From Eledone cirrhosa (Eukaryota): a stretch of DNA of 64,000 nt. Made by a program: the position numbers and the translations under genes. Below the pieces are notes generated by a model. It was not told the origin of the DNA. It made no database searches and saw nothing but the letters and a program-made list of their open reading frames with translations. This document shows positions 3,061 to 58,295 of this stretch, one piece after another. The stretch lies in contig OZ024740.1 in the NCBI GenBank assembly GCA_964016885.1, forward strand, positions 384,648,001 to 384,712,000, given 5' to 3'. The stretch's first letter is position 1; each line of letters starts with the position of its first letter.

Positions 3061-3512
3061 GCAAAAGTTCTATTTAAAATTGTTGGGATACAACAAGTAA
3101 ATATTTTTATAACTGATATAAAGCACTCGACAAGTATTTGGAGTAGATATACGATATTAATAAATGGAAACTATATTTATAAAACCGTATTTATTTCATT
3201 ATACTTATTTCAGGGATACCAAATTAAATTATGGTATGCCTTCATCAGACAAAATACAATATATAACAGTTTTACAAATAAGCTTTGACGTACCGTATTA
3301 AAATGCAACCATTGTTTTTGAAAGTCATCCGGGTGACTTCCAAAAACAATGGTTGCATTTTAATAGGGTACGTCAAAGCTTAATTGTAAAACTGTTATAT
3401 ATTGTATTTTGTCTGATGAAGACATACCATAATTTAATTTGGTATCCCTGAAATATGTATAATGAAATAAATATGGTTTTATAAATATAGTTTCCATTTA
3501 TTAATATCGTAT
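3061..3512. mobile_element. Fold-back HHR element (family B) in (TA)n
   Basis: Inverted arms ~3151-3328 and ~3333-3511 around CATC-CG-GGTG. The left arm has a ~90-nt tail (3061-3150). Confidence 0.9.
3405..3469 (+). ncRNA. Type-I minimal hammerhead ribozyme, family B (other copies 3192-3256 -, 4233-4297 -, 5012-5076 +)
   Basis: Stem I TATTTTGT/ATGAAATA (two GU pairs); core CTGATGA; stem II AGGCATACC..GGTATCCCT; GAAA; near-palindromic stem III ATATGTAT; AUA cleavage triplet. Confidence 0.8.
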
Positions 3513-3640
3513 ATATATGTATATATATGTATATATATATATATATACATATATAAATACAAATATAAATATATATATATATATTTACATATATATTTAT
3601 ATATATATATGTATGTATATATATGTATATATATATACAT

Positions 3641-4190: not shown

Positions 4191-5208
4191 ACGATATTAA
4201 ATAAATGGAAACCATATTTATAAAACCATATTTATTTCATTATACATATTTCAAGGATACCTTTTTAAATTATGGTATGCCTTCATCAGACAAAATACAA
4301 TATATACCAGTTTTATAAATAAACATTGACGCATCCTTTCAAAATGCGACCGTTAGTTTTGGAAGACATCAGGATAGTGGTTTGTTTATTTTAGTAAGTC
4401 GTTGTGTTAAGGAGAAGGAAAAAGACGGAGAGAGATAAAAGTGGAGAAAAGAAAGGGAGAGATAAATAATGAAAAAGAAAAAAGCAAAAAGAAAAAAAGA
4501 AAACAGAGAAAAACAACAGAGAGATATCAAACCACCAGACAGAGAGAAAAAATCAAGAGAGAGAAATATAGAGATAGAGAGAGGAGGAGAGAACGAAAAC
4601 CTTAAGTCATGTCATATTAAGTTGAGTTAACAATTAAGATGAAATGAATAAATAAAATTAGAAATATTAATATTCATGAATGGAATATACATATATAATA
4701 TGAGAAATTAATCATTGTTTAGTTATGATTAGATATTTAGTTTAAAAATTGAGATCAATATATTAAAAATTGGAATTTAAACATTACGAAATATATATAT
4801 TGCTCGAGAAATTACCTATCATATAGCACGTACATATATGCAAAAATACATAAATATATATATATATACACACACACTCAGAAATTACACACTATATCTA
4901 CTTGCCCATATAAAATAAAATAAACAAACCACTATCCTGATGTCTTCCAAAAGTAACGGTCGCATTTTGAAAGGGTGCGTCAATGTTTATTTATAAAACT
5001 GGTATATATTGTATTTTGTCTGATGAAGGCATACCCTAATTTAAAATGGTACCCTTGAAATATGTATAATGAAATAAATGTGGTTTTATAAATATAGTTT
5101 CCATTTATTAATATCGTATATTTACTCCAAATTCTTGTGGAGTGCTTTATATCAGTTATAAAAATATTTGCTTGTTGTATCCCAACAATTTAAATAGAAC
5201 TTTTGCAT
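4190..5208. mobile_element. Longer fold-back copy of family B with GA-rich spacer
   Basis: Arms ~4190-4392 and ~4917-5120 are inverted. The tail (5120-5208) is on the right arm and matches 3061-3150 in reverse complement. Both ends lie in (TA)n. Confidence 0.9.
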
Positions 5209-10956: not shown

Positions 10957-11336
10957 AGTAACAATTTATAGGTGTTGGCCCTAAGGAGGGCCTTTGAACG
11001 TCCACTTTGAAATATCTCTGCGGCGGTGCTGCCAGCAAAGACGAATCCGATGGTAACAATTTAAAGTTGATCGCCCTAAAGAGAGCCTTGGTTCGTTCAA
11101 TCTTAGAAGTCTCAGCGGCGGTGCTGCCAGCAAAGACGAATCCAGCGATAACAATTTATAGTTGGTGGCTCTGAAGAGGATCTTTTAACGTTCACTTTGA
11201 AATATCTCAGCGGCGGTGCTGCCAGCAAAGAAGAATCCGATGGTAACAATTTAAACTTGGTGGCACTGAAGAGGTCCTTGGATCGTTCACTCTTAAAAGT
11301 CCCAGTGGCAGAGCTGTCAGCAAAGACGACTCCGAT
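10957..11336. repeat. Subterminal minisatellite of the Helitron, ~86-115-bp units, ~4 copies
   Basis: Recurring TAACAATTTA..GCGGCGGTGCTGCCAGCAAAGACGAATCC, with alternating unit variants. Confidence 0.85.
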
Positions 11337-11714: not shown

Positions 11715-12245
11715 CTACAAAACTTCCTTATAGACTATATTTTGGCTTTTCTCGAGAGTTGCAAAAGCAAATAGGTTATGCCGGCTCCTCACTCGAGAGC
11801 AGCCAACATATAGTTGACCACGGGAGAACCATGGCTCTTCAAAATTAAGCCCTACGACCGTTAGCGTCTGACCCTGTGATCGTTTAATCGACATGGCGAA
11901 ACAGAGGAAATTGCAGCCTTCTGAATGTGAAAGGAATGTCTTTACCGGATGAAATGAGAGGTATCCTTGGTAGGAAGACAGTATCCCCCTTACCACATCC
12001 TGTAAGTATTGTTGCCTCAATAATATGAGGCACCGCCTTTTGGACGACCAGACGCGTGCCGATGGAAAGCCTTCCGGGTTCCAAATTCCTGAGGAGCATG
12101 ACAGGGGCAACTTTCTTAAGTCGGAGTAAATGTGGTTGCAATCCGGGAGGGTCTAGGGCGTTAAGATATTATGTGGGGTAATTAACAACTTCGTCCGCAT
12201 CAGCCATAGAGTCAAGGGACTTGTAGAAGTGCAGGTTTCCAGGCA
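11715..12245 (-). pseudogene. Helitron RepHel PIF1-like helicase C-terminal fragment (frameshifted)
   Basis: PHLLRLKKVAPVMLLRNL..GTRL..IEATILTG..VFLPRIPL..PFTFRRLQFP, then FAMSIKRSQGQTL..GLNFEEPWFSRGQLYVGCSRV..NIVYKEVL*. These are PIF1/Helitron helicase motifs V-VI. Confidence 0.9.
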
Positions 12246-16225: not shown

Positions 16226-17299
16226 TCATCATCATCATCATCATCATCAACGTTTAACGTCCGTGTTCCACGCTTGCATGGGTTTGGACGGGGGTAGTCC
16301 CACTTGAGGCAAGAGTGATTGTCTTGCTCGCATAGGACTGTCTGGCAGGTTTTCTACAGTTGGATGCCCTTCCTAACACCAACCACATTTACAGTGTGGG
16401 TCTGGGAGGTTTTTACCGTGTTGCCTACACGGCCACATTACAGCGTGGACTGTGTGTTTTTTTGTCGTGACACCTACACGATCTCATTTGTTTCGGCCTC
16501 GATGGCGCGGCACCAACATAACTTTACATAGAACGGGGTGGTGTGGATCGGGTGGGGGTGGTGGTGGTGGGACGGGGTGTATTTTGTTAGAGATGCCTAC
16601 TGGCTGGAGTAGGTTTTACTATATATTTAGGTAAGGCGGGTCTTCTCTGTTACTGAGTACCGCCAAAGGTCTCGGTCCAGTGACATTGTCTTGGAGAGGT
16701 GTAAGTGTGTGATGTCGGAGTTTATCAGCTCGTCCCAGGTTTTTCTAGGTCTGCCTATTCCGTGACTACCGTCTATCTTTATTGCCCTGCACTTTGTTAT
16801 ACAGCTATCGACTTTCATGCGCATCACGTGTCCATACCAACGTAGCCTTCTCTCGAGTAAACAACATCTGATCCCTCTTATCTCTAATTTTTTCCTTAGT
16901 TCGTTTATGCTTTGCCGTTCACGTATATTACTGTTACACATCCAGCGGAGCATGCAAGCTTCGTTCCTCTCTAGTCTGCGTATATCCTCTGCACACAATG
17001 CCCAGGTCTCACTGCCATGCAGCATTGCTGTTCGTATGCAGGCATCGTACAATCTGCCTTTCATTTTTAGTGAGAACCCTTTAGCAGCTAATAGTGGTAT
17101 AAGCTCTCTGAACTTTTTCCAACCAGTTCTGACTCTAGCTACAGTACTTTCAGAGCACCCTCCCCCACTGCTGATTTTATCGCCCAGGTAACGGAAGCTG
17201 TCCACTATTTCTATAGAACCCTCTGCGCAATTGAAAGAGCTAGTAGTTTGTGGGCACTTGCTGCTACTTATTGCACCAGAGCACCGGCCACATGTAAAA

Positions 17300-17303
<4 letters not shown>
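16226..17303 (-). mobile_element. 5'-truncated RTE-clade LINE with (GAT)n tail
   Basis: ORF 16627-17205 plus 3'UTR ending at (CAT)n on the plus strand (16226-16248). Confidence 0.85.
16627..17205 (-). pseudogene. RTE reverse transcriptase C-terminal fragment
   Basis: FRYLG..MKGRLYDACIRTAMLHGSETW..MLRWM..ERRLRWYGHVMR..GRPRKTW. Confidence 0.9.
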
Positions 17304-17344
<41 letters not shown>

Positions 17345-17415
17345 CTGGTGATTTCTCAAGAATGAAACAGTTCTAGTCTATATATATTTTACACACACAC
17401 AAATGTATATATATT

Positions 17416-18484: not shown

Positions 18485-18544
<60 letters not shown>

Positions 18545-18548
<4 letters not shown>

Positions 18549-19381
18549 TATGTATGTACACGTACATACATATATGTATACAGACGTACAGTAGTATGTA
18601 TATATATACATACATGCACACACATATATATATATATATATGCACGTATCGGTTTACCGTACATTTATTATAATGCTTGGTTTGTTTGTAAACAAAGAGC
18701 CCGAATTACGCCGTACAGTGTTTAGGCAACTACGTCACCTTTTTGTTCAACACTGACACAGGAACGATGTACTAGTTTCAAGCTTATTAGCTATTGTCAG
18801 CATTGTATACCTTCCTGCCAGATGGTTGAACGTCTGAAAGTATATACTTTCCTTATGCATATTAACGGCTGAGCAGCCTAATTTGCATATCGAGTGAGTC
18901 TAGACGGTCAGGCGCACCGAAAACGATAAATGGAATAGAAAGAAACGAAATTTCATTTCTCACTCTTAGTACGGCAGTTACTTAAATGTTTGCATAATGT
19001 GCATAAGGAAAGTATATACTTTCAGACGTTCAACCATCTGGCAGGAAGGTATACGATGCTGACGATAGCTAATAAGCTTGAAACTAGTACATCGTTCCTG
19101 TGTCAGTGTTGAACAAAAAGGTGACGTGGTTGCCTAAACACTGTACGGCGTAATTCGGGCTGTTTTGTGTGTTTACAAACAAACCGACCATTATAATAAA
19201 TGTTCGGTAAACCGATACGTGCATATATATATATATGTGTGTGCATGTATGTATTTAAATACATACTACTGTACGTCTGTATACATATATGTATGTACCT
19301 GTACATACATACATACTTACATTTATGTAACTGCCGTACTAAGAGTGAGAAATGAAATTTCATTTCATTCTATTCCATTTA
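18545..19381. mobile_element. Retrozyme-like family C, fold-back insertion (one full unit -, partial unit +)
   Basis: 18545-18990 antisense and ~19000-19381 sense; HHR in both arms; flanked by (TA)n. Confidence 0.9.
19053..19095 (+). ncRNA. Canonical type-I minimal hammerhead ribozyme, family C (other copies 18764-18806 -, ~28990-29032 -, 49191-49233 +)
   Basis: ACGATG-CTGACGA-T-AGCT-aata-AGCT-T-GAAA-CTAG-TA-CATCGT: 6-bp stem I, palindromic ACTAGT stem III, GUA site. Confidence 0.9.
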
Positions 19382-22300
19382 TATATATATATATTATATA
19401 TCATATGTGTGTGTGTGTATGAATATATGTATGTATGCATATGTTTGTGTGTGAGTGTGTTTCTGAATTTATATAGACGGAAAGTGAAAATTTGGCGGAG
19501 ATATGTGAAGAGATAGGAAAGGATTGGTATCACTGAATATATCATGATATTTAACCATATTACTGATGGTATTCTGAAACATTAATGATTAGTCTTTAAA
19601 TCTTCAGTTTAAAAATTTCGATGAAATGGCTACTACTAATAACGTCTTGGAAAAACATTACACACAAAGGGAAGCAAATTGAAGCCTAATCTTTCTCTAT
19701 TAATTAAAGTAGACAAAGAATGTCGAAACAAAGGAATAAAATAAAACGAAAAAAATAATTAATAAATGTTTCAACATTGAGATTATACAAGTATAATTTT
19801 ATGTAAAGTTGCAGCCGACCAGACGGCTTAGTTGATGGAATAACTTTAGATATAATTAACTATTTGAAAGAAATTTAAACTTATTCTATTAAAAACTAAT
19901 CAAAGAAATTAGAACTAAAGAAACAACGAAACTTCGGGTTGTGATTGTGAGAGTCGTTAACTACTAACATACAAACATCATTATCATCATTTTCATCATT
20001 TTGCTTACGGTTTCCATACTGACATACTTTCCTTCGCGGAGGAATTCTCGTTGAAATCTTTCAATTCTACTTGATTCGAAAGTAGATGAGTGCCGGAAAC
20101 TTTCGGAATTCCAGAAACAGTTATTAACGGTAGATAAGAGTGACAAATGTAGCGTAGCTGGATGGTTCAACGTTTAAGTTTCGACTGTAAACTGACAGAT
20201 GAGCGAAGACAATTAGTTTTCTTGGCAATATGTGTTTTGATGTGTGCTTAGGTTTTCCTTTTGTTGCTTCGCTCATTTACCTGAAAACACAACCATCATA
20301 ATTCTGTCTATAGACCATTGTCACTCGACAATAAAACCTCAAACTCTAATGATCGATTGCATACACAATGCAAAATATCACTCTTCCCTGTTGCGTATAT
20401 TCAACATAACAAACGAAGTACTAAAACATCACATAACAAACAAATTGATATATTATACAGACGCTAACTCTACCTTCCAACAAATAATGCTACACATACC
20501 TCAGTAATAGAGGGGTATAGCTGTACTGTTGTACCTATAGTTTATAACTGGTGTATTATAGAATTGGTTTCATTTATTTATATTAATCTACGTTTTAATT
20601 TACTCTGTTCTACGTGTCTCCGTCATTTTCATGGCATTAGTTATTTTTTTTAAATATGAGTAACTGCATGGATGATTCTGATCTAATTCTCTGAGTTAGT
20701 TGTGCGTTATATTTAATCTGTGAATTCTGCTAGTAAGCATAACGTATCCACTCGTTTGCTACACACCCGGACGTGCGCGTACGATCAGGCATAGTTCACG
20801 GATTTTGAGAAAAATTAAGAAGAATATACGAATTTAATTATTAATTCTTAGATAGTATACTCTTTAATACATTAAACAACTTGGAAAGAATTGGCTTATG
20901 CAGAAAGCGTTTGAAAACAATTATAATGTTGGATGCTTTTTATGTTGTTCGATTCTGTATATCGTTTACACGTGGAATAATGTTAACCTCTCTGCCGTTG
21001 TCTCTATCTTTCAAAAATAGCTCTCTTCGACAGATGTGCGCTCATTTGAAACATCCGGCATATTGTGCGCATAAATGATTTTTTCATTTTTATTGTTTTA
21101 TATTTTAACGTTTTCATGTCTATCGATTTGCAAGACACACATGATCCAGCCTTGAGTTGTTTATTTACTTCCTTTAAATAATTGTATTGCAGTTTTGTTT
21201 TTTTTGAAGTATAAGGTTGCTTTTTTATCTTCTCATTGTCCTGTATAGATATAGCAATTTTCCATTTTGGCATGGCTTGTGCATCTATCTTCTTAGTATT
21301 CAGGCATCTTTATTTATATGGCGTGACTCCAGTATGTGAAAGTGTAGCATATTGTGAAATGTTTTCCGATTATCAATCAGAGCCTCGTTAAGATTTATTT
21401 TCCGATTTTACTATCTTCCTATAATAGCCCGATTCACCGGAGCACATGTTTACAGCCACACATTCTATTCTGTAACCGTTTCGGATCCTCTATCAATGTA
21501 TTTGCTCTTGTGAGTAAGCAACATGTGGTAGGTTATGAATGTAAAGGCTTTATATTTTGTTGGTAAGAAGGTTATAGATAGATCTGTACTTTTAAATGTC
21601 TCTGGTCTTTGGAATTTGGAGAATTAATGTTGTTTTCCACTCTAGTAGCCATTGAATTGATTCCGGTCTACTTACCAGTACATTAAGTAATGCAAAGTAG
21701 CAAATTAAATACCTAATTATTCAATTTCATTCCCCTACATATCTAGATTAAATTAACTTTGGAATCGATAAATAAATTCCAGTCTCAGCTTGTAGTCAAT
21801 TCAATCTGCTACACACCATCCCCCAAAATGTATGACCTTCAAACAAATGAAAAACCATTACAACAGTAGCATTTCACTACATTGACATAGTTGATTTTCT
21901 TTGGAAAATATCCAAATCCATCTTCGATCCATACCTACAGCCTTATGTCTCTGTTGGAAATAAATATTTTAGGTTGAGCACTATTAATCCAAGAAAATTA
22001 GTTACTATTGACGTTGCCAAGAAATAGAAAGAGATTTAATATCTCCCCTAAGAAGCATATTATCAATAAACTTATATCCCTAGCGAAAAATTTTAATAAT
22101 TTCACATGTTCTTCTAGTTTATTCCCTTTACTCGTTCTCATTCCAAATAAATAGCGAAGGTTCATAAGACACGTCAACCTACGCCTATATGTTCTGCATC
22201 ACACACTTGATGTCTTTCGTTTTTTCAGAATTTTCCTTGAGTTTTTTAGAATTTCACTGGAGTTTTGTTATATCTTCTTAGCTAAACTAGGCCTCTCTAT

Positions 22301-23432
22301 CATGTCTTAGTCGAAACCAATTAATAGCTCACTTCTCTTCAGGGGTTCCGTTATGCCTTTCATACATTTCTGTACATATATGATTTTCAAAACATTAAAT
22401 CACTTCTCACTCTCCCGTCTATCAACATACGCTTGCATAAGTGATAGATTCGTTCGCTTCTTAACATCCATATACAGTCGTTATATACTGATTGTTTTAA
22501 CAAGCTTCATCAAACCTGTACTGTCTCCACGACCTCAACAACATGCAGTAAAGTGGACAAAAACGCATGAATATATCAGGAAAACAGTCTTATACCATAC
22601 CAGACCTAAAAATTAACAACATACAATTAATGACCTCAAATGTACTATAAACATTGACTCACAAACTATCATGAAACCGTATGCTGTTCTCATATATATG
22701 ACATTACGAAATTTTAATCTAGAAGATACTTCAGCGAAGATTACTTACTGACACATAGCTCAAGAAAATCTCGTATTAAAGTTCAGCTCATATACCTAAG
22801 AAATGATAATGCTCAAATGATAAGCATTCTAAAGAATGATAAGCATTCTAAACCACATTAAAACGTTTGTATCTTATTGACTAGTAGAATGTCTCTCAGC
22901 TGCCCTCTATAGTTAGTGGCTCTCAGATGCAATGTGTTTCTGATGTATGTCTTCTTCCATCACTATATTAATTCCCGTCCCTCTGAAGTAGCTACAATTG
23001 TATCTCCACCCACTGATATGTATTCACTACACTGTCCCTGTTGTTACCACTAATATATCTCAGAGTACGTATTTAATACTAAACCCTTGACACAAGTTCA
23101 ATCCCCATATGTCATTTTATACTTCCTTATAATAATGCTTCAAACCGAAAGAAACGTCATCACGTCATTTCCACTATACGAGCAAAAGAACAATTTTCGT
23201 GTGAATGGTGCATGGTTTTATTGAATTAACCTCAAAGTTATATGTACTTATTTCATTGGATGTGGAGGAAAGGAATGACAAGGTGAACCTAGTAGGGTAC
23301 GAATTCGGGTAGAAACAATATATCATATATGTATATTCAGCATGTTATCAAGATTATTTCACTATATAAAAGAACAATATATTCAAAAGATATGGTATTT
23401 ATACACACACACACACACATATATATATATAC

Positions 23433-24323
23433 ACATTTTAGTACAGCATTAACGAAGCTTTAGGCTGTGGCTAAGCTAACGAATGCTAATTCGGAATGTA
23501 GCTTTAGCACTCGATAGAGAATAATACCCCAGAGTAATAACAATACGTTTAGACACCTTTGCAAATCAAATATAGCGATCGGCAGTGCAGCCGCATTGCC
23601 ATAGCAACGAATTCCGAATTTGCATTCGTTAGCTTAGCCGCAGCCTAAAGCTTCGTTAATGCTGTACTAAAATTTGTATTTTAACTCCTAGAGTTAACGA
23701 TTAACTGATTAATTTAATTAGACAATTCTATTGATTGACTAATTGTTTATGTTTGTTTGATAACTTCTGGTTGAGTGCTTAATTCGGTTTGTCTAAGGAA
23801 ATTTCATTCCTTTGTCTCAAATTTCGAATTCACCGACAAAACGGGGGTTACCTCCCTTGGAGAAAACCACGTGTCTATAGCGAAATTTACTGCTAGAACA
23901 CACCAGCTGAGGCTAAAGAACGCAAGACTTGTTGAAGAAGTAAATCCTTTGTTCTGTCGTTAAAGACCATTAACTTGCAGACCCCTGCAAGCGGAATTAG
24001 TCGATCTCGGATTTACAGAAACCTAGCGTGGATGTTGTGTGTTGTATGTGATGTATATCGTATGCTATACGATATGCATTATATATTGCATTCGGTCTCC
24101 GCGCAATGGTCCAGGTCAGTCTTAAATCTTTTCCTGAGTCCAACCATTTTCGTTGCTATGGCAATGCGGCTGGACTGCCGATCGCTATATTTGATTTGCA
24201 AAGGTGTCTAAACGTATTGATATTACTCTGGGGTATTATTCTCTATCGAGTGCTAAAGCTACATTCCGAATTTGCATTCGTTATCTTAGCCGCAGCCTAA
24301 AGCTTCGTTAATGCTGTACTAAA

Positions 24324-24330
<7 letters not shown>
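23433..24330. mobile_element. Retrozyme/PLE-like family J: ~652-nt unit with terminal redundancy plus inverted arm
   Basis: ATTCCGAATTTGCATTCG..GTACTAAAAT occurs at 23611 and 24263. 23433-23610 is the reverse complement of ~24150-24327. HHR-like TTGAAGA-A-GTAAATCC...GGATTTAC-A-GAAA at ~23932-24021. Confidence 0.8.
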
Positions 24331-24360
<30 letters not shown>

Positions 24361-24660: not shown

Positions 24661-24942
24661 CTGGAAAGTAATCATCGGGTATGACCGATGTACCTTCGAT
24701 GGTTTTTCACTCAATGCGTTAATTAAGCTAGTATCATTAAGATACTAACATAAAGAAATACGTTAAATTGTGAGAAAAACAATTTCATGTGGGTACAGAA
24801 TTTCGTTCTCTGGACCCGGACTAATGCATTAATTTCTGCTACCTTCTCTGCTGGTGACAGACATATGGAACTGGTGCGCATAGAAATTAAGTAATGCTAT
24901 ATAAGCATTACGAAATCAGCTACATTTATATATATATATATA

Positions 24943-26937
24943 TATAAAAGTAATATATATGAGTAATATATATGTTGAAACAGATACCAACATATCTGTA
25001 TTTATATTGCAAAAGAAAGTTAGCCAGACTGAAGAATATTAATTATTATACCACAGTTCGTCCACATCGATTTAAAATAATAATAATAATAAATCGACAA
25101 AAACTAGTTGTGCTGCCAAATGGCAATGATGTTTATACATATTTAAATTTCAAAGTCAAACCTGTTCAGTAGATAAGTTTAAACCTCAAAATCCAAACAT
25201 GTTTCGAGATGGATATAAGTGTAGGAATATCATGCCACTGCTCTCCTCAGTAAACATCCAGAGACAATTGATAAGCTTCACTTCTAAATAATTTAAAAGA
25301 CTGTGTGACGCACATGGGTTCACAGATTCAGGCTAGTCTCATAACCGTACTGCTAGAAATAACAGTCGTATATATGAGGCGAATTTTAGCTCGACGAAGA
25401 GCCGTTATATTAAGTGTAAGGAATTCTTTTACAATGGAATTAGCTCGAAAGGAAATATTCCTGAGCCGTGTATAAAAGTAATATATATGAGTAATATATA
25501 TGTTGAAACAGATACCAACATATCTGTATTTATATTGCAAAAGAAAGTTAGCCAGACTGAAGAATATTAATTATTATACCACAGTTCGTCCACATCGATT
25601 TAAAATAATAATAATAATAAATCGACAAAAACTAGTTGTGCTGCCAAATGGCAATGATGTTTATACATATTTAAATTTCAAAGTCAAACCTGTTCAGTAG
25701 ATAAGTTTAAACCTCAAAATCCAAACATGTTTCGAGATGGATATAAGTGTAGGAATATCATGCCACTGCTCTCCTCAGTAAACATCCAGAGACAATTGAT
25801 AAGCTTCACTTCTAAATAATTTAAAAGACTGTGTGACGCACATGGGTTCACAGATTCAGGCTAGTCTCATAACCGTACTGCTAGAAATAACAGTCGTATA
25901 TATGAGGCGAATTTTAGCTCGACGAAGAGCCGTTATATTAAGTACGGTTATGAGACTAGCCTGAATCTGTGAACCCATGTGCGTCACACAGTCTTTTAAA
26001 TTATTTAGAAGTGAAGCTTATCAATTGTCTCTGGATGTTTACTGAGGAGAGCAGTGGCATGATATTCCTACACTTATATCCATCTCGAAACATGTTTGGA
26101 TTTTGAGGTTTAAACTTATCTACTGAACAGGTTTGACTTTGAAATTTAAATATGTATAAACATCATTGCCATTTGGCAGCACAACTAGTTTTTGTCGATT
26201 TATTATTATTATTATTTTAAATCGATGTGGACGAACTGTGGTATAATAATTAATATTCTTCAGTCTGGCTAACTTTCTTTTGCAATATAAATACAGATAT
26301 GTTGGTATCTGTTTCAACATATATATTACTCATATATATTACTTTTATACACGGCTCAGGAATATTTCCTTTCGAGCTAATTCCATTGTAAAAGAATTCC
26401 TTACACTTAATATAACGGCTCTTCGTCGAGCTAAAATTCGCCTCATATATACGACTGTTATTTCTAGCAGTACGGTTATGAGACTAGCCTGAATCTGTGA
26501 ACCCATGTGCGTCACACAGTCTTTTAAATTATTTAGAAGTGAAGCTTATCAATTGTCTCTGGATGTTTACTGAGGAGAGCAGTGGCATGATATTCCTACA
26601 CTTATATCCATCTCGAAACATGTTTGGATTTTGAGGTTTAAACTTATCTACTGAACAGGTTTGACTTTGAAATTTAAATATGTATAAACATCATTGCCAT
26701 TTGGCAGCACAACTAGTTTTTGTCGATTTATTATTATTATTATTTTAAATCGATGTGGACGAACTGTGGTATAATAATTAATATTCTTCAGTCTGGCTAA
26801 CTTTCTTTTGCAATATAAATACAGATATGTTGGTATCTGTTTCAACATATATATTACTCATATATATTACTTTTATACACGGCTCAGGAATATTTCCTTT
26901 CGAGCTAATTCCATTGTAAAAGAATTCCTTACACTTA

Positions 26938-26939
<2 letters not shown>
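24943..26939. mobile_element. Retrozyme-like family D: 528-bp tandem units arranged as a ~2-kb palindrome
   Basis: Period 528 (24943/25471; ORFs 24972/25500). Inversion junction at 25941-25943 (AGT microhomology) with a ~61-nt spacer. Units look identical by eye; both ends lie in (TA)n. Confidence 0.95.
26036..26102 (+). ncRNA. Hammerhead motif, family D (also 26564-26630 +, 25190-25256 -, 25718-25784 -)
   Basis: CTGAGGA-GAG-ca-GTGG...CCAT-CTC-GAAA-CATG-TT; palindromic ACATGT stem III; GUU site. Stem I GTTTA/TGGAT is wobble-rich. Confidence 0.65.
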
Positions 26940-26984
<45 letters not shown>

Positions 26985-27312: not shown

Positions 27313-27335
27313 ATATATATATATATATATATATA

Positions 27336-28708
27336 TAGTATAAAAGAGAAAACACAGGTAAGCATTAAGAGAAGGATTTTATCTAGGTATTTACGACCGT
27401 TTCATTGGTAAGTGCAACCTTATATTGCTATACTGCAAACAGCAGCCACTCAATTATAATTGTTGTTCACAGTCCAAATTTTCAAAATAGTGAGTAAGTT
27501 ACTCTTGAAATAGTTCTTAATATATAGAGAAAAACATTTTTTTGGAATTGTATTTACTTGTATAGAGAGAGACGAATTAGAAGGTGAGGGGATAAACGGA
27601 ATAGTATAGAGAGAGAGGAAGGGGGAAAAGTAAGGAAGTAGAGTGACAAACTGAGATGGAGGGAGGGGTAGAAGTGGAAGGATTCCTTGATCAGTTTTGA
27701 CATGTAGACTTCAACTCGTGGAATGTAGTGAGTTAAAGAGAATTAAATTGATCATAGTGGGAGGGAGGGATAGAGAGAGAGAGGGAGGGGGAGATATAAA
27801 GAGATAAATATATATATAAAAAATAAAGATAAAGTTAATAATGACACAAATAAAAGCAAAGAAGGGGGAGAAAGAAGAAAAGAAAAGATAGCCAAAATGG
27901 AGAGGGAAGGAAGGAAGAAAACGAAGAAATAGAAGAGGGATGAAGGGGAAGGGAGGGATATAGGTATTGGTTTTTGTGGGTAATTAAAAGGGTTTAGATA
28001 CAACAAGAGAGTATACAGTCTAAGTATATGCAGTTTGTCAGTTGGTAGTAAGAGGTTAATGGTTCGATTTGCACTTGTAGTGTGAAAACTTCTCTTTGAG
28101 TCCATGATTTATATATTTATCTCTTTATATCCCCCCCCCCCTCTCACTCTCTATCCATCAATTTAATTCTCTTTAACTCACTACATTCCACGACATGAAA
28201 TCTACATATTAAAACTGATCAATGAATCCTTCCACCACTACCCCTCCCTCCGTCTCAGTTTGTCACTCTACTTCCTTACTCTCCACCCTTCCGCTCTCTC
28301 TATACTATTCCGTTTGTCCCCTCACCTTCTAATTCCTCTCTCTCTATACTCGTAAATACAATTCCAAAAAAATGTTTTTCTCCATATATTAAGAACTATT
28401 TCAAGAGTAACTTATTCACTATTTTGAAAATTTGGACTGTGAACAACAATTATAATTAAGTGGCTGCTATTTGCAGTATAGCAATATAAGGCTGCACTTA
28501 CCAAGGAAACGGTCGTAAATACCTGGATAAAATCCTTCCCTTAATGCTTACCTGTGCTTTCTCTTTTATACTTTATACTCCAAGATTGAACGGAATCTTA
28601 CAAACTTGTGGAGTTACCCCTAACCGTACGTTGAAATCATCCATGAAACTGACTTTCTTAACCACGAACTGGATCACAATAAGCAATGTTCTGCTTCCCT
28701 AACTATGT
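27336..28708. mobile_element. Fold-back PLE-type element family G
   Basis: Arms ~27336-27800 and ~28115-28572 are inverted and moderately diverged. Right tail ~135 nt; GAAA-CGG-TC at 28506-28514; both ends in (TA)n. Confidence 0.85.
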
Positions 28709-28726
28709 ATATATATATATATATAT

Positions 28727-29167
28727 ACGGAAAAAATGAAACGAATTTTCATTTCTCAATCTTAGTACGGCTGTTACTTAAATATAAGTATGTATACGTA
28801 CATACATATATGTATACAGACGTACAGTAGTATATATATATATACATACATGCACACATATATATATGTACGTATGGATTCACCGAACATTTATTATAAT
28901 GCTTGGTGTGTTTGTCAACAAACAACCCGAATTAAGTCGTGCAGTGTCTAGCAACCATCGTTGCTCATTTGTTCAACACTGATAAAGGAACGCTGTACTA
29001 GTTTCAAGCTTATTAGCTATCGTCAGCAACATATACCTTCCTGCCAGATGATTGAACATCTGAAAGTATATACTTTCCTTATGCATATTAACGGCTGAGC
29101 AGCCTAATTTGCATATCTAGTGAGTTAATCGGCTTGGGCACCGAAAACGATAAACGGAAAAAAATGA

Positions 29168-29170
<3 letters not shown>
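28727..29170 (-). mobile_element. Family C, one complete unit with terminal redundancy
   Basis: ACGGAAAAAATGAAAC at both 28727 and ~29154 (period ~427); intact CTGACGA HHR core. Confidence 0.9.
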
Positions 29171-35697: not shown

Positions 35698-35700
<3 letters not shown>

Positions 35701-36309
35701 ATCAAGTATGACACCGACGGCAGAGAGCTGAAGCCGTTTCGACGGCTATTTCTGGACTCCAGGAAAATTTCTGTCGGAGTTGACGAAGTAGAGGTTCCAG
35801 TTTTGTCCGAGTGCAGCAAAATGCCGTTAGTGTTTTCATACTCTGTTACTTTGCTAGGGAGTTTTTGTAGGAATCTGTTGTGTCTGGGTTTGAATATAAT
35901 GCTCTTGACCAGTTGGAAAAGGTCGTTCTCGAAGGGTGAGAGCATAGGGTTCGGAAGGAGAGATTTGTAGGTATTAAATCCGAATCTCTCCTTGGTATCG
36001 AAGTCCTGATAGTCGCGGTATCTGTCGTAGAAAAAAGTTCTCCATCTTAGTCTTTTCGCAAAGAGGTCGATTTTTTGCGTGAGCATCCGAAGGTAAAGTT
36101 TTCTCGGTGGAACTGGGATGTCGATGTTGTGTTTTCGCATGGTGCGGGAGAAAATACTTGAACTGGGCGGAAAAGAATATAGCCGTCGAAATGGCTTGAG
36201 CTTTGCCGTCGAGGTCATACTTGTTCCTATTACCCACTCTACTACCCTAAGTATTGAGCACTTTGGTGTGTTATGGTCGATCTGGTTCCTTACCACAATT
36301 CCTTCGTTA
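35698..36309. mobile_element. Family A fold-back copy enclosing a PLE ORF fragment
   Basis: Short arm 35698-35758, long-tail arm 36175-36309, coding spacer between them. Confidence 0.9.
35770..36150 (-). pseudogene. Penelope-like element ORF N-terminus (Nematis-like pre-RT region)
   Basis: IPVPPRKLYLRMLTQKIDLFAKRLRWRTFFY..FGFNT..PFENDLFQLVKSIIF..FLQKL..HSDKTG. A 1-nt frameshift restores DKTGNLYFV, the conserved DK(G/T) motif preceding PLE RT. Confidence 0.75.
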
Positions 36310-37400: not shown

Positions 37401-37455
37401 ACTGCTATATATATTTCGGTGACAGCCATCCTTGGCTGTGACCTCTTCAGGCAGT
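37401..37455 (-). ncRNA. Canonical type-I hammerhead ribozyme (family L fragment, ~37345-37570)
   Basis: Minus strand: ACTGC-CTGAAGA-GGTcACAGCCA-agga-TGGCTGTcACC-GAAA-TATATA-TA-GCAGT. Confidence 0.9.
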
Positions 37456-38091: not shown

Positions 38092-39154
38092 CGAAGGAAT
38101 TATCGTAAGAAACTAGATGGACCATAACGCACCAAAGTACTCAATACTTAGGGTAGTAGGATGGGAAATAGGAAAAAGTATGACCCCGACGGCAGAGCTC
38201 AAGCCGTTTCGCGGCTTTTTCTGGACTAAATTAGAATTTTTAGTCTGGTGAATAAATAGCCGAACTTGTCAAGGGGTACTTTCGTATATGGGAATATTGT
38301 ATTTGTCAAGAGGATTGGTTAAAATTTGTTTGTAAACACAAATAAGTCTATCATGGCATTTGGTGGGGGTAGGGGTGGCTGAACTTGCCTGTATAACAAT
38401 GAGGGAGTGATTGGAGCCGGTCAAGCGTTGAAAGTGATATGTATACAGCAGATTCTAAAAATAGTGTATGAAAAGTCGAAAAATTTACCTGTAATTGCAA
38501 GATAGCATTGGCGGAATACGCTTTACTAACTGCTTTTAGCAGCTGTGTTAGACCCTGAAAAGTTTGCTTATATTTTTTCACTACCCACTTCTACATTTTC
38601 TTATTTAGTATTTTCCATTCTCAACTTATTAACCTTTTGTATAGCTTTGGCCGTACAAGCAACACCTACTAATCATAGCAGCTGTTTCTAGACCCTACTG
38701 CTTTTTTTTTTTTTTTTTTTATTCATTTCTCACTATCTAATTTTATATATTTGTTTATATTTCTTTCTAGTATTTTTTATTGTCTCCTACTCTCATTCGA
38801 ATTACCTATTCTATAACTTCCCTCCTCCATTTTCTCCAGAACAATTTTTCGACTTTTCATACACTATCCTTAGAATCTGCTGTATACATATCACTTTCAA
38901 CGCTTGACCGGCTCCACTCACTCCCTCATTGTTCTACAGGTAAGTTCAGCTAACCATACCTCCCACCAAATGCCATGATAGACTTATTTGTGTTTACAAC
39001 AAATGTTGACCAAAAGTCTTGACAACTACAATCTTCCCATATAAGGAAGTACCCCTGACAAATTCGACTATTTATTCACCAGGCTAAACATTCTAATTTA
39101 GTCCAGAAATAGCCGTCAGAACGGCTTGAGCTCTGCCGTCGGAGTCATACCTTT

Positions 39155-39158
<4 letters not shown>
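38090..39158. mobile_element. Longest family A fold-back copy
   Basis: Arms ~38170-38484 and ~38842-39158 are inverted and diverged; tail 38090-38170. Complete HHR at 38183-38277 (-) and ~39051-39145 (+). Confidence 0.9.
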
Positions 39159-39197
<39 letters not shown>

Positions 39198-42110: not shown

Positions 42111-42155
42111 AATATTGAACTAGTTTCGTTGTTGTTACAACTCATCAGCAATATT
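42111..42155 (-). ncRNA. Type-I minimal hammerhead motif (family M)
   Basis: Minus strand: AATATTG-CTGATGA-GTTG-taacaa-CAAC-GAAA-CTAG-TT-CAATATT; 7-bp stem I; GUU site. Confidence 0.8.
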
Positions 42156-42466: not shown

Positions 42467-43229
<763 letters not shown>

Positions 43230-48796: not shown

Positions 48797-49440
48797 AACC
48801 GGGCGTACCGAATACGATAAATGGAAAATGAAATTTCATTTTTCACTCATAGTACGGCTGATACTTGAATATAAGCATGTATATTGTTTACAAACAAACC
48901 GAACATTATAATAAATGTTCGGTAAACCCATACGTACATATATATGTGTGTGCATGTATGTATATACATACTACTCTAAGTCTGTATACATATATGTATT
49001 ATGTATACATACTTATATTTAAGTATCAGCCGTACTAAGAGTGAGAAATGAAATTTCATTTTTTCCGTTTGTCGCTTTCGGTACGCCCGGCCGACTAATT
49101 CAGTCGATAAGCAAATTAGGCTACTCACCCGTTAATATGCATAAGGAAAGTATATACTTTCAGACGTTCAATCAACTGACAGGAAGGTATACGGTGTTGA
49201 TGACAGCTAATAAGCTAGAAACTAGTTCATCGTTCCTTTGTCAGTGTTGAACAAAATGGCAACGATGGTTGCCGAACACTGTACGGCTAATAATTCGGGC
49301 TGTTTGTTTACAAACAAACCGAGCATTATAATAAATGTTCGGTAAACCCATACGTATATATATATGTGTGCATGTATGTATATACATACTAATGTACGTC
49401 TGTATACATATATGTATGTACGTATACATACTTATATTTA
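48797..49440. mobile_element. Family C: ~1.3 tandem units (+) with a short inverted arm
   Basis: TGTTTACAAACAAACCGA at 48885 and 49305 (period 420); 48797-48882 is antisense. Confidence 0.9.
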
Positions 49441-55459: not shown

Positions 55460-58295
55460 CAACCTAAAGTCCAACCCCTCCTCAACGTGGCAGGGCGGAG
55501 GCAACGGGAAGTGTCAGAGTTATGCCCTGGGGAACTTCGGTTCCTGGTAGGGCCACCCAAGGCGGATTGGTCTGGCACCCAGCGGTATTAGGGCCGCAAC
55601 CCGGCAAAAGAGGCTCCGGTGAAAATCCAAGAGGTGTCTGCTCCGGTAACCGGCGGCTTCGGGTCGTTTCTGTCTCTGTGTCTGTGGAGAATCTGCGGCA
55701 AACAGGACGTTTTTCCCCCTTGTTCGGGATATACATGCGGGTTTTTTGGGGGACCGCTTGTGAATTCACTACTCCCATGACACTTCTTCCATGAATCCTA
55801 CATATACGAACTATGAAACCAAATTGCCTTCCCGCGACGAACGCAATGCAAAGCAACAGCGCTCCTACCGCTATGGCTCTACAGACTACTCCCGCAGTAG
55901 TCCCGCTCTTCAGACAAAGGAAGGAATTGAGGGTGGCGTGCTGGAACGTCCGAACATTTCGTGACGACGGTGTCCAGGCACTTACAATGAAGGCTCTGCA
56001 CAGGTACTGCGTTCCTGTGCAGGGGACATCTACCACTTGTAACATAGTAGTGTGACTGATAACAGTGGCCTCACGGGATCGCTGTAGCGCTCAGCCCCGA
56101 CTGTAAGCAGCTCTGCTGGCGTGGCAGCCGATCTCCCACCGACTCGCGCTGGTTCGATTGAAGGGTCAAATCTCCAACGTCAGCGTAATTGCCTTCTACG
56201 CTCCCACACTCACGAGGCGGACCTTACGCAGTTCTATGCTGATCTCCAAACAATCGAGGATGGCGTCCGCTCCAGTGATGTTCTCGTTGTCGCTGGGGAC
56301 TGGAAGCGCGGACAGGGCCAGCTGATGATACAACAGGGCATATTCTAGGACGCTTCACCCTAAGCATACGCTGTGACAATGGTGAACGGCTCGTGTCCTT
56401 CGCGGATGCCAATCGTCTTATCGTCACCAACACCCGGTTCCAACATAATCGGCGTCACCTCGTCACGTGGCGATCCAATGACAGAAGAACGGCCAATCAG
56501 ATTGCCTACATCCTGGTCAGATCTCGTTGGGCGATTTCAGTGATGGACTCGCGTGCGTATCGTGGGGCTAATACGGGCAGTCAGCATGGGTCAGACCATA
56601 CTCTTGTTCGAGCAACCCTTCGTCTGCGGCTGCGGGCGAAACCTCCTCCCAACCGCCAGAAAAGGATCGATATCTCGCGACTCAAGCTCGATGCTGGAAA
56701 TGCTTTCCGGCTAGACTGTGAAACCGATTCCAAATGCTGAGTAACGAAATGGAATAGCAACCGGAGCAGGAGTGGAACGCGCGCTGGGCGGCGACGGTTG
56801 GGCAGGGAGTATCTCGGGTCGCCCCGAAGACGCCATCGGGACTGGATCTCCGGCGGCACACTTGAACTCGCGGAGAGGGCGAGAGTCGCCCGACTCGAGG
56901 GTGCACTTAGTCTTTGAGATATCCGACGTCGCACATCTCGCGCTATTCGGGCAAATCGGAATGCACACTGGCGCGAGTTTGCGGAGCAGACGGAGAGTGC
57001 AGCAGCCTGTGGTGACTCGCGCAAGGTCTACCAACTGGTGAAGCGGGTCAGCCGAAGCAGTACGGGTATCAGCGAGACTATCCGTGATCGGAACGGGGCG
57101 GTCATTACCAATCTTAATGACCGGCTAGTCCGATGGTGGGACCATTTCTCCGAAATGTTCAACCACCCGTCACCATCCACGCCAACCTACTTGCAGCCTT
57201 CCAGAGAAGAATACGGGTGCAGCACTGCCCCTCCAACGGTCGAGGAGGTACATGGTGTCCTGACACATCTCCAGAACAAAAAGGCGCCGGGCGAGGATGG
57301 CGTTCCAGTTGAGGTCTACAAGGCCGAGACTGATGTCTTCGCAGCTTGGCTCCATCAAGTCTTCTGCTGAAGAGGTTCCAGGAGAAGGGAGAAGGGAGAA
57401 GGGTCGTGGTGACGGACCTGACCTACGTGGATGACATCGTGCTGATGGGCCCTAACGGGACAGATGTACAAGGTGCTCTCGAAAGGGTGCACACTGCAGC
57501 CGCCGCTGTTGGTCTACGAATCAATGCCACCAAGTCGAAAGACATGACGTCACTGGTCACGCCTGATGCCTGGCAGCCGATATCTCTTGAGGGCGTGGGC
57601 CTGGAGGATGTGGAGTCCTTCATTTACCTGGGCTCAACAGTGGTTCCAACGGGACAGGGCGCAGCCGAGGACAAGCGTCGCATAGGTGCTGCCATATCCG
57701 CTTTCGGGCGCCTCCAGCGGTGTCTGTGGGACAGAAGAGGGATCACCTCGGCGATCAAAGGGCGTATCTACCAGGCCGTCGTTCACACTATCCTCCTCTA
57801 TGGCTCTGAAACATGGCCTATGAGGGTAGTCGATTAACGAGGGCTGGAGGTCTTCGACAATAACTGTCTTCGCCGCATTCTTCGCTGCCGACGCGTTGAT
57901 TGGGTACCTACCACCAGTATTCGTCTTCGCCTGAATCTTCGACCCCTTCTTTCAGTGCTTCTGCAACGGCGCTTGAGATGGTTTGGTCACGCAGCCCGGC
58001 GCCCTGAGGGTGAGCTGATCCGCGATGTTCTCCTCCCACCTCCACTCCCTATTGGCGCAAGCGCGTTGGCGGGCAGCTGAAGACCTGGGCAACGACGATC
58101 AAGGAGGACCTCTCCGAACTCTCAGGTCCGCAAGTGGTCGGCCTGCGCCATGGAACCGTGACTGGCTCGCTATCTCCAGTGACCTAGCTCGGGACTGTCG
58201 TGCGTGGGCTGCCATGGTTCGGGATGCCGTCAGGACAAGGGAAGAAGCCGGATCAACCCGTCCAGGGTGAATGTCGACACAAGTAAGTAAGTAGT
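55460..58295 (+). mobile_element. RTE-clade LINE with 14-bp TSD and internal deletions
   Basis: TSD ACTTTCAGTATGTC at 55446-55459 and 58296-58309; (AAGT)n tail; GC-rich body against an AT-rich background. Confidence 0.92.
55813..58270 (+). pseudogene. APE endonuclease + reverse transcriptase, disrupted
   Basis: APE: LRVACWNVRT, YAPT, VVAGDW, TW.SND..NQI.YILV, GSDH.LV. RT: KAPGEDG, DLTYVDDIVL, F.YLGS, LLYGSETW, RRLRWFGH. The central RT region between KAPG and YVDD is deleted near 57365. Confidence 0.9.

Follow-up and report, generated by a model that had tools for sequence, protein, structure and literature searches.

A probable insertion of 2 kb, made up of 3.8 head-to-head copies of a non-coding 528-nt unit, lies in a (TA)n tract of the window, the 64-kb stretch of Eledone cirrhosa DNA that was analysed here (Table 1). 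The window is AT-rich and crowded with microsatellites and broken retroelement frames; in a BLAST search, no further copies of the unit were found in it besides this array. We defined the unit on window positions 25941-26468 (528 nt, 33% G+C). On this numbering, the left arm, which reads on the minus strand, is 1,001 nt long and consists of unit positions 465-528, 1-528, and 1-409, and the right arm, on the plus strand, is 1,002 nt long and consists of 1-528 followed by 1-474. The unit has no open reading frame (ORF), its longest stop-free stretch being 80 codons of low complexity, and in particular it lacks the ORF with reverse transcriptase and GIY-YIG domains that marks an autonomous Penelope-like element (PLE); the element is non-autonomous.

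An initial annotation had described a 2-kb palindrome with no differences between its arms, and this was confirmed: all five pieces of the unit found by BLAST are 100% identical. The arms were said to be near-perfect and approximately 0.94 kb long; the length is right (937 nt of each arm mirror one another, with 61 nt separating the arms), but the arms are perfect. Four units had been counted, and there are indeed four hammerhead motifs, but the array amounts to 3.8 units. The 3-nt AGT microhomology reported at the central joint was found there and is shared by the two arms; of 12 ACT sites, the one that partners it (25877-25879) is the closest. The tail of about 60 nt on the right arm is also real, at 65 nt, or 60 to 69 nt once overlap with the TA tract is allowed for. 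A fixed right boundary at 26939 could not be upheld, as the array ends within 26937-26942, where it overlaps the TA. Similarly, the inner end of the left arm (unit 465) and the outer end of the right arm (unit 469-474), which had been placed at one and the same unit position, overlap by 5 to 10 nt but do not coincide exactly. At each outer end the array passes into (TA)n, beyond which the two flanks have different sequences.

Table 1. Features of the insertion and its borders, in window coordinates; sites A and B are putative start sites
Feature	Position	Strand	Remark
Left (TA)n tract, likely target	24927..24946		Final 4 nt common to element end
Whole insertion	24943..26942		3.8 head-to-head copies of the 528-nt unit
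Left arm, without tail	24943..25943	-	Outer end is site A (unit 405-409); owns the spacer
Hammerhead motif copy 4	25196..25250	-	By descriptor
Hammerhead motif copy 3	25724..25778	-	By descriptor
Spacer, 61 nt	25880..25940	-	Unit 468-528 antisense; inferred fold-back loop
AGT microhomology at joint	25941..25943		Common to both arms
Right arm, with tail	25941..26942	+	Outer end is site B (unit 469-474)
Hairpin C, third ACGG-opened stem	25946..25961 (unit 6-21)	+	Adjoins inner end of right arm
Hammerhead motif copy 1, minimal type I	26042..26096	+	By descriptor
Predicted 27-bp hairpin, one per unit	26090..26155 (unit 150-215)	+	-23.4 kcal/mol, z -6.1, 0/200 shuffles
Hairpin A, GGCUC/GAGCU stem after ACGG	26353..26378 (unit 413-438)	+	Just 3' of site A
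Hairpin B, same GGCUC/GAGCU stem, other loop	26417..26432 (unit 477-492)	+	Just 3' of site B
Hammerhead motif copy 2	26570..26624	+	By descriptor
Tail, 65 nt	26878..26942	+	Unit 410-474; without mirror at left end
Hairpin A, second copy, in tail	26881..26906	+	Same stem as first copy
Right (TA)n tract, then (GA)n, likely target	26938..26954		First 5 nt common to element end

The 528-nt family in sequencing reads

Four of eight listed public sequencing runs, none of which is on record as RNA, were compared with one permuted unit and the left flank. In run X1, the flank contig has a depth of 6 and the unit a depth of 800 to 33,000; three contigs at depth 593 to 708 are identical to the unit. Relative to the flank, this is approximately 100-fold for the exact contigs and more than 1,000-fold for the family which, depth being no copy number, translates only roughly into the order of 100 exact units within a family of thousands. 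Run X4, whose library type is not on record, contains a 536-nt contig that covers the entire unit in head-to-tail form and differs from it by 12 letters and 10 gap letters; it carries mostly the window's minority letters, the majority letters being largely missing. Run X5, from another organism, yielded diverged pieces and one head-to-tail joint. The 528-nt repeat is a high-copy head-to-tail family. An opposite-strand joint in run X6 (unit 118/501) was considered as a second palindromic copy and rejected as too thin (27 reads, 2 starts, and a short side of 20 letters). Among the pieces and loose ends listed, the TA tract having been skipped, no read or contig from the four runs spans the central joint or either insertion end; the X1 flank contig (316 nt) stops at the TA tract and is uninformative on presence or absence of the insert.

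The recent activity claimed for the element is backed by these contigs of identical sequence, at ~100 times the depth of the flank, which point to a young subfamily. Zero differences over 2,000 nt would place the insertion at less than ~0.15 to 1.5 million years at assumed rates of 1e-8 to 1e-9, a bound behind which arm-to-arm conversion could conceal a greater age. Conversion between the arms of palindromes is established. The insertion is likely young.

Hammerhead motifs and predicted RNA structure

Copy 1 of the motif has a CUGAGGA core, a GAA, a 3-bp helix II with a 32-nt loop II, and a palindromic helix III of 6 nt, with a predicted cut after GUU at 26094-26096; the corresponding GTT was found where it had been reported and at three equivalent places. 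The conserved positions C3-A9, G12-A14, A15.1-U16.1, and H17 all carry the expected letters (CUGAGGA, GAA, A-U, and U17), and G10.1-C11.1 and the palindromic 15.2-16.2 are present in the window's copies. Helix I is weak (5 bp, 3 of them G-U); its duplex is predicted at -3.6 kcal/mol, compared with -2.3 to -8.7 kcal/mol for five other motifs in the window. An alternative cut site after 26110 would have a helix III of 2 bp and a loop of 16 nt. The hammerhead annotated in each unit stands by descriptor, with a match in every unit, but not by Rfam: a search gave 0 matches at the gathering score, and none of the 9 weak matches at E<=10 is a hammerhead. The descriptor match of the unit was equalled in 0 of 5,000 dinucleotide shuffles, with any match in 6 of 5,000. 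A relaxed descriptor gave 12 matches in the window (4 in this array and 2 doubtful), compared with a mean of 0.2 in 30 block shuffles, and a scan of metagenomes for the hammerhead pattern gave 0 matches.

Hammerhead motifs occur elsewhere in the window. A second hammerhead tandem family, with a unit of ~443 nt, lies at 18548-19382 in an inverted and tailed layout in (TA)n, and also at 28723-29170 and 48802-49434. Palindromic copies of a third family, at 3061-3517 and 4192-5206, have minimal hammerheads at 3248, 3413, 4289, and 5020 and a tail of ~90 nt, which is on opposite sides in the two copies. Single, well-formed minimal hammerheads with palindromic helix III are found on the minus strand at 42118-42148 (helix I of 7 bp, also with a GUU site) and 37406-37450.

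Among the 37 substitutions listed in the unit from reads, none hits a core position, an absence that by our own estimate would arise by chance about 1 time in 3, and none makes a two-sided (covarying) change in helix I. Of 12 rows of indels listed, which are not independent, 8 fall inside loop II. At position 16.2, G is replaced by A in 84% of X1 depth, 76% of X5 depth, and 161 of 227 X6 reads, and with this A the helix III duplex is predicted not to form; the majority of family copies are without an intact helix III palindrome.

The predicted 27-bp hairpin would pair helix III, the cut site, and the 3' strand of helix I, and the pairing of its stem is kept by 4 of 4 listed substitutions. Over the whole unit, 6 of the 37 listed substitutions break a predicted pair, compared with 14.7 expected (P ~0.0006), a count that includes no two-sided changes and uses a structure derived from the window's own sequence. 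Folding of the unit as a circle gave z -5.5 (0/60 shuffles) and of its antisense z -3.3; 10 control stretches ranged from z -3.0 to +1.5. Because few substitutions break pairs and the fold has a strong z score, the RNA structure looks to be under selection, with the long hairpin apparently its best preserved part. In these models, the conserved hairpin would enclose the cleavage site and keep the hammerhead inactive; a double-hammerhead fold of the right-arm RNA was placed 52 kcal/mol above the minimum, core contacts not being modelled. As the helix III palindrome is gone from most copies of the family, self-cleavage at the GUU and a 528-nt circle stay hypothetical, with an unfavourable prediction for cleavage.

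Small hairpins adjoin the arm ends. ACGG occurs three times per unit, twice directly after sites A and B, the outer ends of the left and right arms; hairpin C, which the third ACGG opens, is the weakest of the three and is missing from the whole-unit fold. In two read consensuses, the inner four pairs of hairpin B are kept with other loops, and the ACGG is altered there. The association of hairpins with start sites is a post hoc pattern from one insertion.

Relation to retrozymes and PLEs

The element is very probably a PLE-type non-autonomous insertion, and the array is likely a recent insertion of a protein-free non-LTR retrozyme, a kind of element already described; the 528-nt repeat would then represent a new family of the retrozyme type whose insertion follows the usual PLE mode. 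No published description of the 528-nt family was found, although supplements of Cervera 2020 (PMC7229834) and Li 2026 (10.64898/2026.07.22.740005) may list it or similar hammerhead variants; the 10-letter hammerhead core string is missing from file S1 of the Craig 2021 supplement, which is a metadata table.

Tandem non-coding hammerhead repeats are known as non-LTR retrozymes (PMC7229834) and have been argued to stem from PLE pLTRs, with units of 51 to 972 bp (10.64898/2026.07.22.740005). As in those elements, the units here are non-coding, low in G+C, head-to-tail, and of high copy, with one type I motif each. Retrozymes are tandems of at least two consecutive units; each arm of the array has 1.9 units and two motifs, and head-to-tail joints are also found in X4 and X5. 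The type I hammerhead is present in 4 of 4 units by descriptor only, Rfam being negative; inspection of the stop-free stretches found no protein coding; and multiple copies are indicated by the depth ratio to the flank, which is not itself a copy number. The unit had been called longer than most animal retrozymes, and it is above the 220 to 390 nt of the coral, mussel, and axolotl examples (PMC7229834), but inside the range of 51 to 972 bp. Unlike that of retrozymes, the motif is minimal and of the dimer type, not canonical with loop contacts, and its cut site is predicted to be blocked, whereas most metazoan circles, the mussel excepted, are predicted to have a free one (PMC7229834). The inverted and tailed layout is a feature of the array that is absent from the retrozyme descriptions in the cited parts of PMC7229834 and 10.64898/2026.07.22.740005.

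The typical PLE layout is a partial tandem with an adjacent inverted, 5'-truncated copy and a one-sided tail (PMC8557442, PMC3846280). The array resembles EN+ PLE insertions (PMC8557442, PMC3846280, PMC11167929) in all of this, with 3' ends pointing outward, as well as in its short joint overlap, its hammerhead within the repeat, and its AT-rich microsatellite target, here (TA)n at both sides. It differs from them in having no ORF, in arms of nearly two full units each, in the duplicated hairpin behind both ends, and in a tail of 65 nt as opposed to the published 30 to 40 nt; other tails in the window are ~65 to 130 nt long. Two details are new: the position of both outer ends immediately 5' of the duplicated hairpin, and the predicted burial of the cleavage site in the conserved 27-bp hairpin.

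Minimal PLE hammerheads have been reported in opposite-strand pairs 100 to 700 bp apart (PMC4209133). The motif shares with these the conserved core, G10.1-C11.1, a short helix I, and a palindromic helix III requiring a dimer. In contrast to the Schistosoma families, with a helix II of 7 to 8 bp, that helix has 3 bp and a 32-nt loop here; unlike the hammerheads of PMC4209133, positions 9 and 10.1 have no additional base between them, three G-U pairs occur in helix I, and most copies of the 528-nt family have A at 16.2.

Hydra clade PLEs likewise carry hammerheads and insert in (TA)n (PMC8557442). That a Hydra PLE is the mobiliser is a guess based on co-occurrence in the window; no sequence link was found between the 528-nt unit and the window's Hydra-type family, and the unit has no ORF or protein resemblance to link it to Hydra or another autonomous partner. 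An internally deleted PLE copy lies at 35699-36307 on the minus strand, between a tailed inverted end and a tail-less end, an end layout like that of the 528-nt array. Its ORF piece (35790-36140) is the N-terminus of a Hydra-type ORF with RWR and DKT, and at least 8 short copies of this family occur in the window, of which several are folded back near one hairpin. HMMER gave 521 matches to the ORF remnant at E<=0.001; the relatives are proteins of 710 to 720 residues, and all 5 of the long matches aligned have RWK/RWR, DKT/DKS, and YRDD. The remnant is assigned to the Hydra clade because its relatives bear these marks of that clade. In a word-index protein search with the remnant, 0 of 61 candidates passed; among 9 of the relative proteins, Pfam matched RVT_1 once and GIY-YIG once, in different proteins and below cut-off each time; a coiled-coil match was spurious, and 6 proteins gave nothing. 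Other families of the window end repeatedly at two fixed sites: in the Hydra-type family 3, tail-less ends lie at TCC before a microsatellite in 6 of 8 cases and tailed ends at TTCGT in 6 of 7.

Taken by itself, the array is nothing unusual, being a fresh copy from an already known class of elements. What makes it useful is that it preserves, without mutations, a record of the way PLE inverted repeats and tails arise, a question that Craig 2021 (PMC8557442) and Frangieh 2024 (PMC11167929) leave open. Since the repeat is in tandem, each of the four arm ends has a position on the unit, and this placement excludes fold-back alone and points to the duplicated hairpin as a start signal. A locked and often degenerate hammerhead also bears on whether such motifs must cut at all.

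Formation of the insertion and other palindromes of the window

The initial annotation had proposed reverse transcription of a multimeric or circular RNA followed by fold-back. Both steps are retained here for a multi-unit RNA, but fold-back alone leaves 65 nt (left arm first) or 463 nt (right arm first) without a template, and so a second priming or a jump is needed. The balance tips slightly toward PLE-type insertion by fold-back and second priming as the best explanation of the whole; for the particular route, with fold-back at the nearest ACT and second priming for the tail, the case is about evenly poised. A borrowed PLE reverse transcriptase-endonuclease would copy an uncut multi-unit RNA after nicking both (TA)n strands. 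The left nick would prime at RNA site A (unit ~409), and 1,001 nt, almost two units, would be copied; the AGT at the cDNA end would then pair with the nearest ACT by folding back, leaving a 61-nt loop, and its extension on the same cDNA would give the mirror arm. The right nick would prime at site B (unit ~474), which lies 65 nt 3' of site A on the RNA, and the B-primed cDNA would supply the tail and anneal to the fold-back strand. One small hairpin, duplicated just 3' of each start site, would be the likely positioning signal, and multimers would survive as templates if the long hairpin locks the hammerhead as predicted. In vitro, a PLE nicks and extends both target strands, two RNA start sites bound the tail, and uncut RNA is the main template (PMC11167929).

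We infer the order of events (first priming at A, fold-back, second priming at B) from the joint, the loops, spacer ownership, and the in vitro work. As fold-back predicts, 10 of 12 other self-palindromes in the window have a clear centre with a loop of 0 to 41 nt, two being unresolved. The spacer belongs to the tail-less arm in all three of the decidable tailed elements (this array, 18548-19382, and 35699-36307); three further tailed elements are undecidable. Against the route, use of the nearest ACT has a chance of ~1 in 12, a 3-nt microhomology occurs by chance in 7% of random joints, the predicted DNA fold of the cDNA end leaves the terminal AGT unpaired, seven other inverted pairs have spacers of 108 to 537 nt, and the ACGG before hairpin B is altered in a diverged subfamily. 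Sites A and B are taken as standard family ends by analogy with other families, from one copy of the 528-nt family. Two general rules were tried and rejected: spacer length does not equal tail length in general, as it would with two enzymes in lock-step, since other loops are 0 to 41 or 108 to 537 nt, and the idea that each arm stops 55 nt 3' of its own start holds for the two arms of this array and approximately (62 nt) for one arm of 18548-19382, but not for the others. No fold-back or twin-priming model for PLE inversions was found in the literature covered, which included few subscription papers.

L1 twin priming leaves an inverted 5' part, a breakpoint duplication, and microhomology. The array is like it in its inverted 5' part, short breakpoint duplication, and joint microhomology, and differs in having no poly(A), both ends at fixed RNA sites, and a tandem template. 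Without fold-back, both nicks might have primed long cDNAs on one linear tetramer RNA, the A-primed strand halting at the B primer two units upstream, the B strand running 1 kb further, and the ends joining via the AGT. In favour of this, the left arm's inner end (465) and the right arm's outer end (469-474) are no more than 10 nt apart, for which the chance is ~4%, so that the insert corresponds to an uninterrupted 2-kb piece of a tetramer whose 5' half has been inverted; a PLE also extends both strands in vitro (PMC11167929). Such twin priming does not, however, predict the nearest-ACT joint, the short loops in 10 of 12 palindromes, or the ownership of the spacer by the tail-less arm in 3 of 3 elements, and the tail-less arm of 18548-19382 stops at site A, not B; we consider it rather unlikely. 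A closed dimer circle of RNA (1,056 nt), primed at adjacent A and B, on which the A strand laps once and meets the B primer after 991 to 1,001 nt, would give 1,056 - 65 = 991 nt, compared with 994 to 1,001 observed, and exactly one unit is found in the tail-less arm of 18548-19382. The unit also folds as a circle far better than shuffles do, and minor dimeric circles have been obtained in vitro for the axolotl retrozyme (PMC7229834). We nevertheless judge this template decidedly unlikely: of five multi-unit first arms in the window, two stop at a priming site but three (1 unit + ~20, + 69, and + ~146 nt) stop at none, a circle could form only after cleavage, which the predicted fold would block, and the template copied in vitro is mainly uncut RNA (PMC11167929). 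Quite unlikely, taken as a whole, is a composite in which the insert is the one-lap record of a circular dimer RNA, with a PLE enzyme dimer positioned by the duplicated hairpin, a hammerhead selected to stay locked, and a first strand that halts on reaching the second primer and folds back, after which cDNA from that primer seals it; if true, it would give a general rule for PLE inverted repeats and tails.

The palindrome could also have arisen by self-priming on an antisense transcript, as proposed for PLE head-to-head palindromes (PMC3846280), or by DNA rearrangement (a template switch or arm-to-arm conversion) of a simpler tandem after insertion, conversion being able to keep the arms identical. 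Both seem very improbable, as neither accounts for a tail that ends flush against (TA)n where a hairpin is repeated. Folding is stronger for the sense strand (z -5.5) than for the antisense (z -3.3), and a post-insertion fold-back would mirror the flank, whereas the flanks here differ. An assembly or chimeric-read artefact, in which the fold-back or the number of units is unreal, might be suspected, as every copy is 100% identical, the joint was not seen among the pieces listed in the four runs, and complex PLE inserts are known to trouble assemblies (PMC8557442). It is extremely doubtful, however, as a fold-back within a read would give a mirrored flank and no tail, and the same layout is found at 18531-19382 (92% arm identity) and 38168-39160 (90%). 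In addition, the units carry minority letters (e.g., at 25155, with 2.5% of X1 depth) that match exact contigs of a public run, X1 possibly being the assembly's own sample; because these letters exist as exact contigs, polishing toward the family majority did not create them. Fold-back with second priming is the reading we prefer.

The listing of local inverted pairs in the window has 28 entries, 3 of them from this array; the window has ~17 other local inverted pairs, several with this layout. Several have one side flush with a microsatellite and the other 65 to 130 nt off, and older palindromes persist with arm identities of 84 to 99%. The roles as a dsRNA, ADAR, and fragility substrate suggested in the initial annotation go beyond the evidence. 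One at 23419-24341 has a unit of 652 nt, ends at one same site (no tail), and a spacer of 537 nt, with no hammerhead by either descriptor. Another, at 27332-28700, has arms of ~430 to 480 nt at 88 to 90% identity, a tail of 127 nt, and a doubtful U3-A8 hammerhead-like match in each arm. A G+C-richer palindrome of 367 nt (2438-2804), in which no hammerhead was found, is 98.6% perfect with a loop of 5 nt. At 10958-11336 and 11715-12152 (minus), four copies of a 95-nt repeat lie beside a frame that we take to resemble the end of a Helitron-type helicase, and the frames at 16627-17355 (minus), 42700-43200, and 56279-57837 (plus) are presumably broken LINE-type reverse transcriptase or endonuclease frames.
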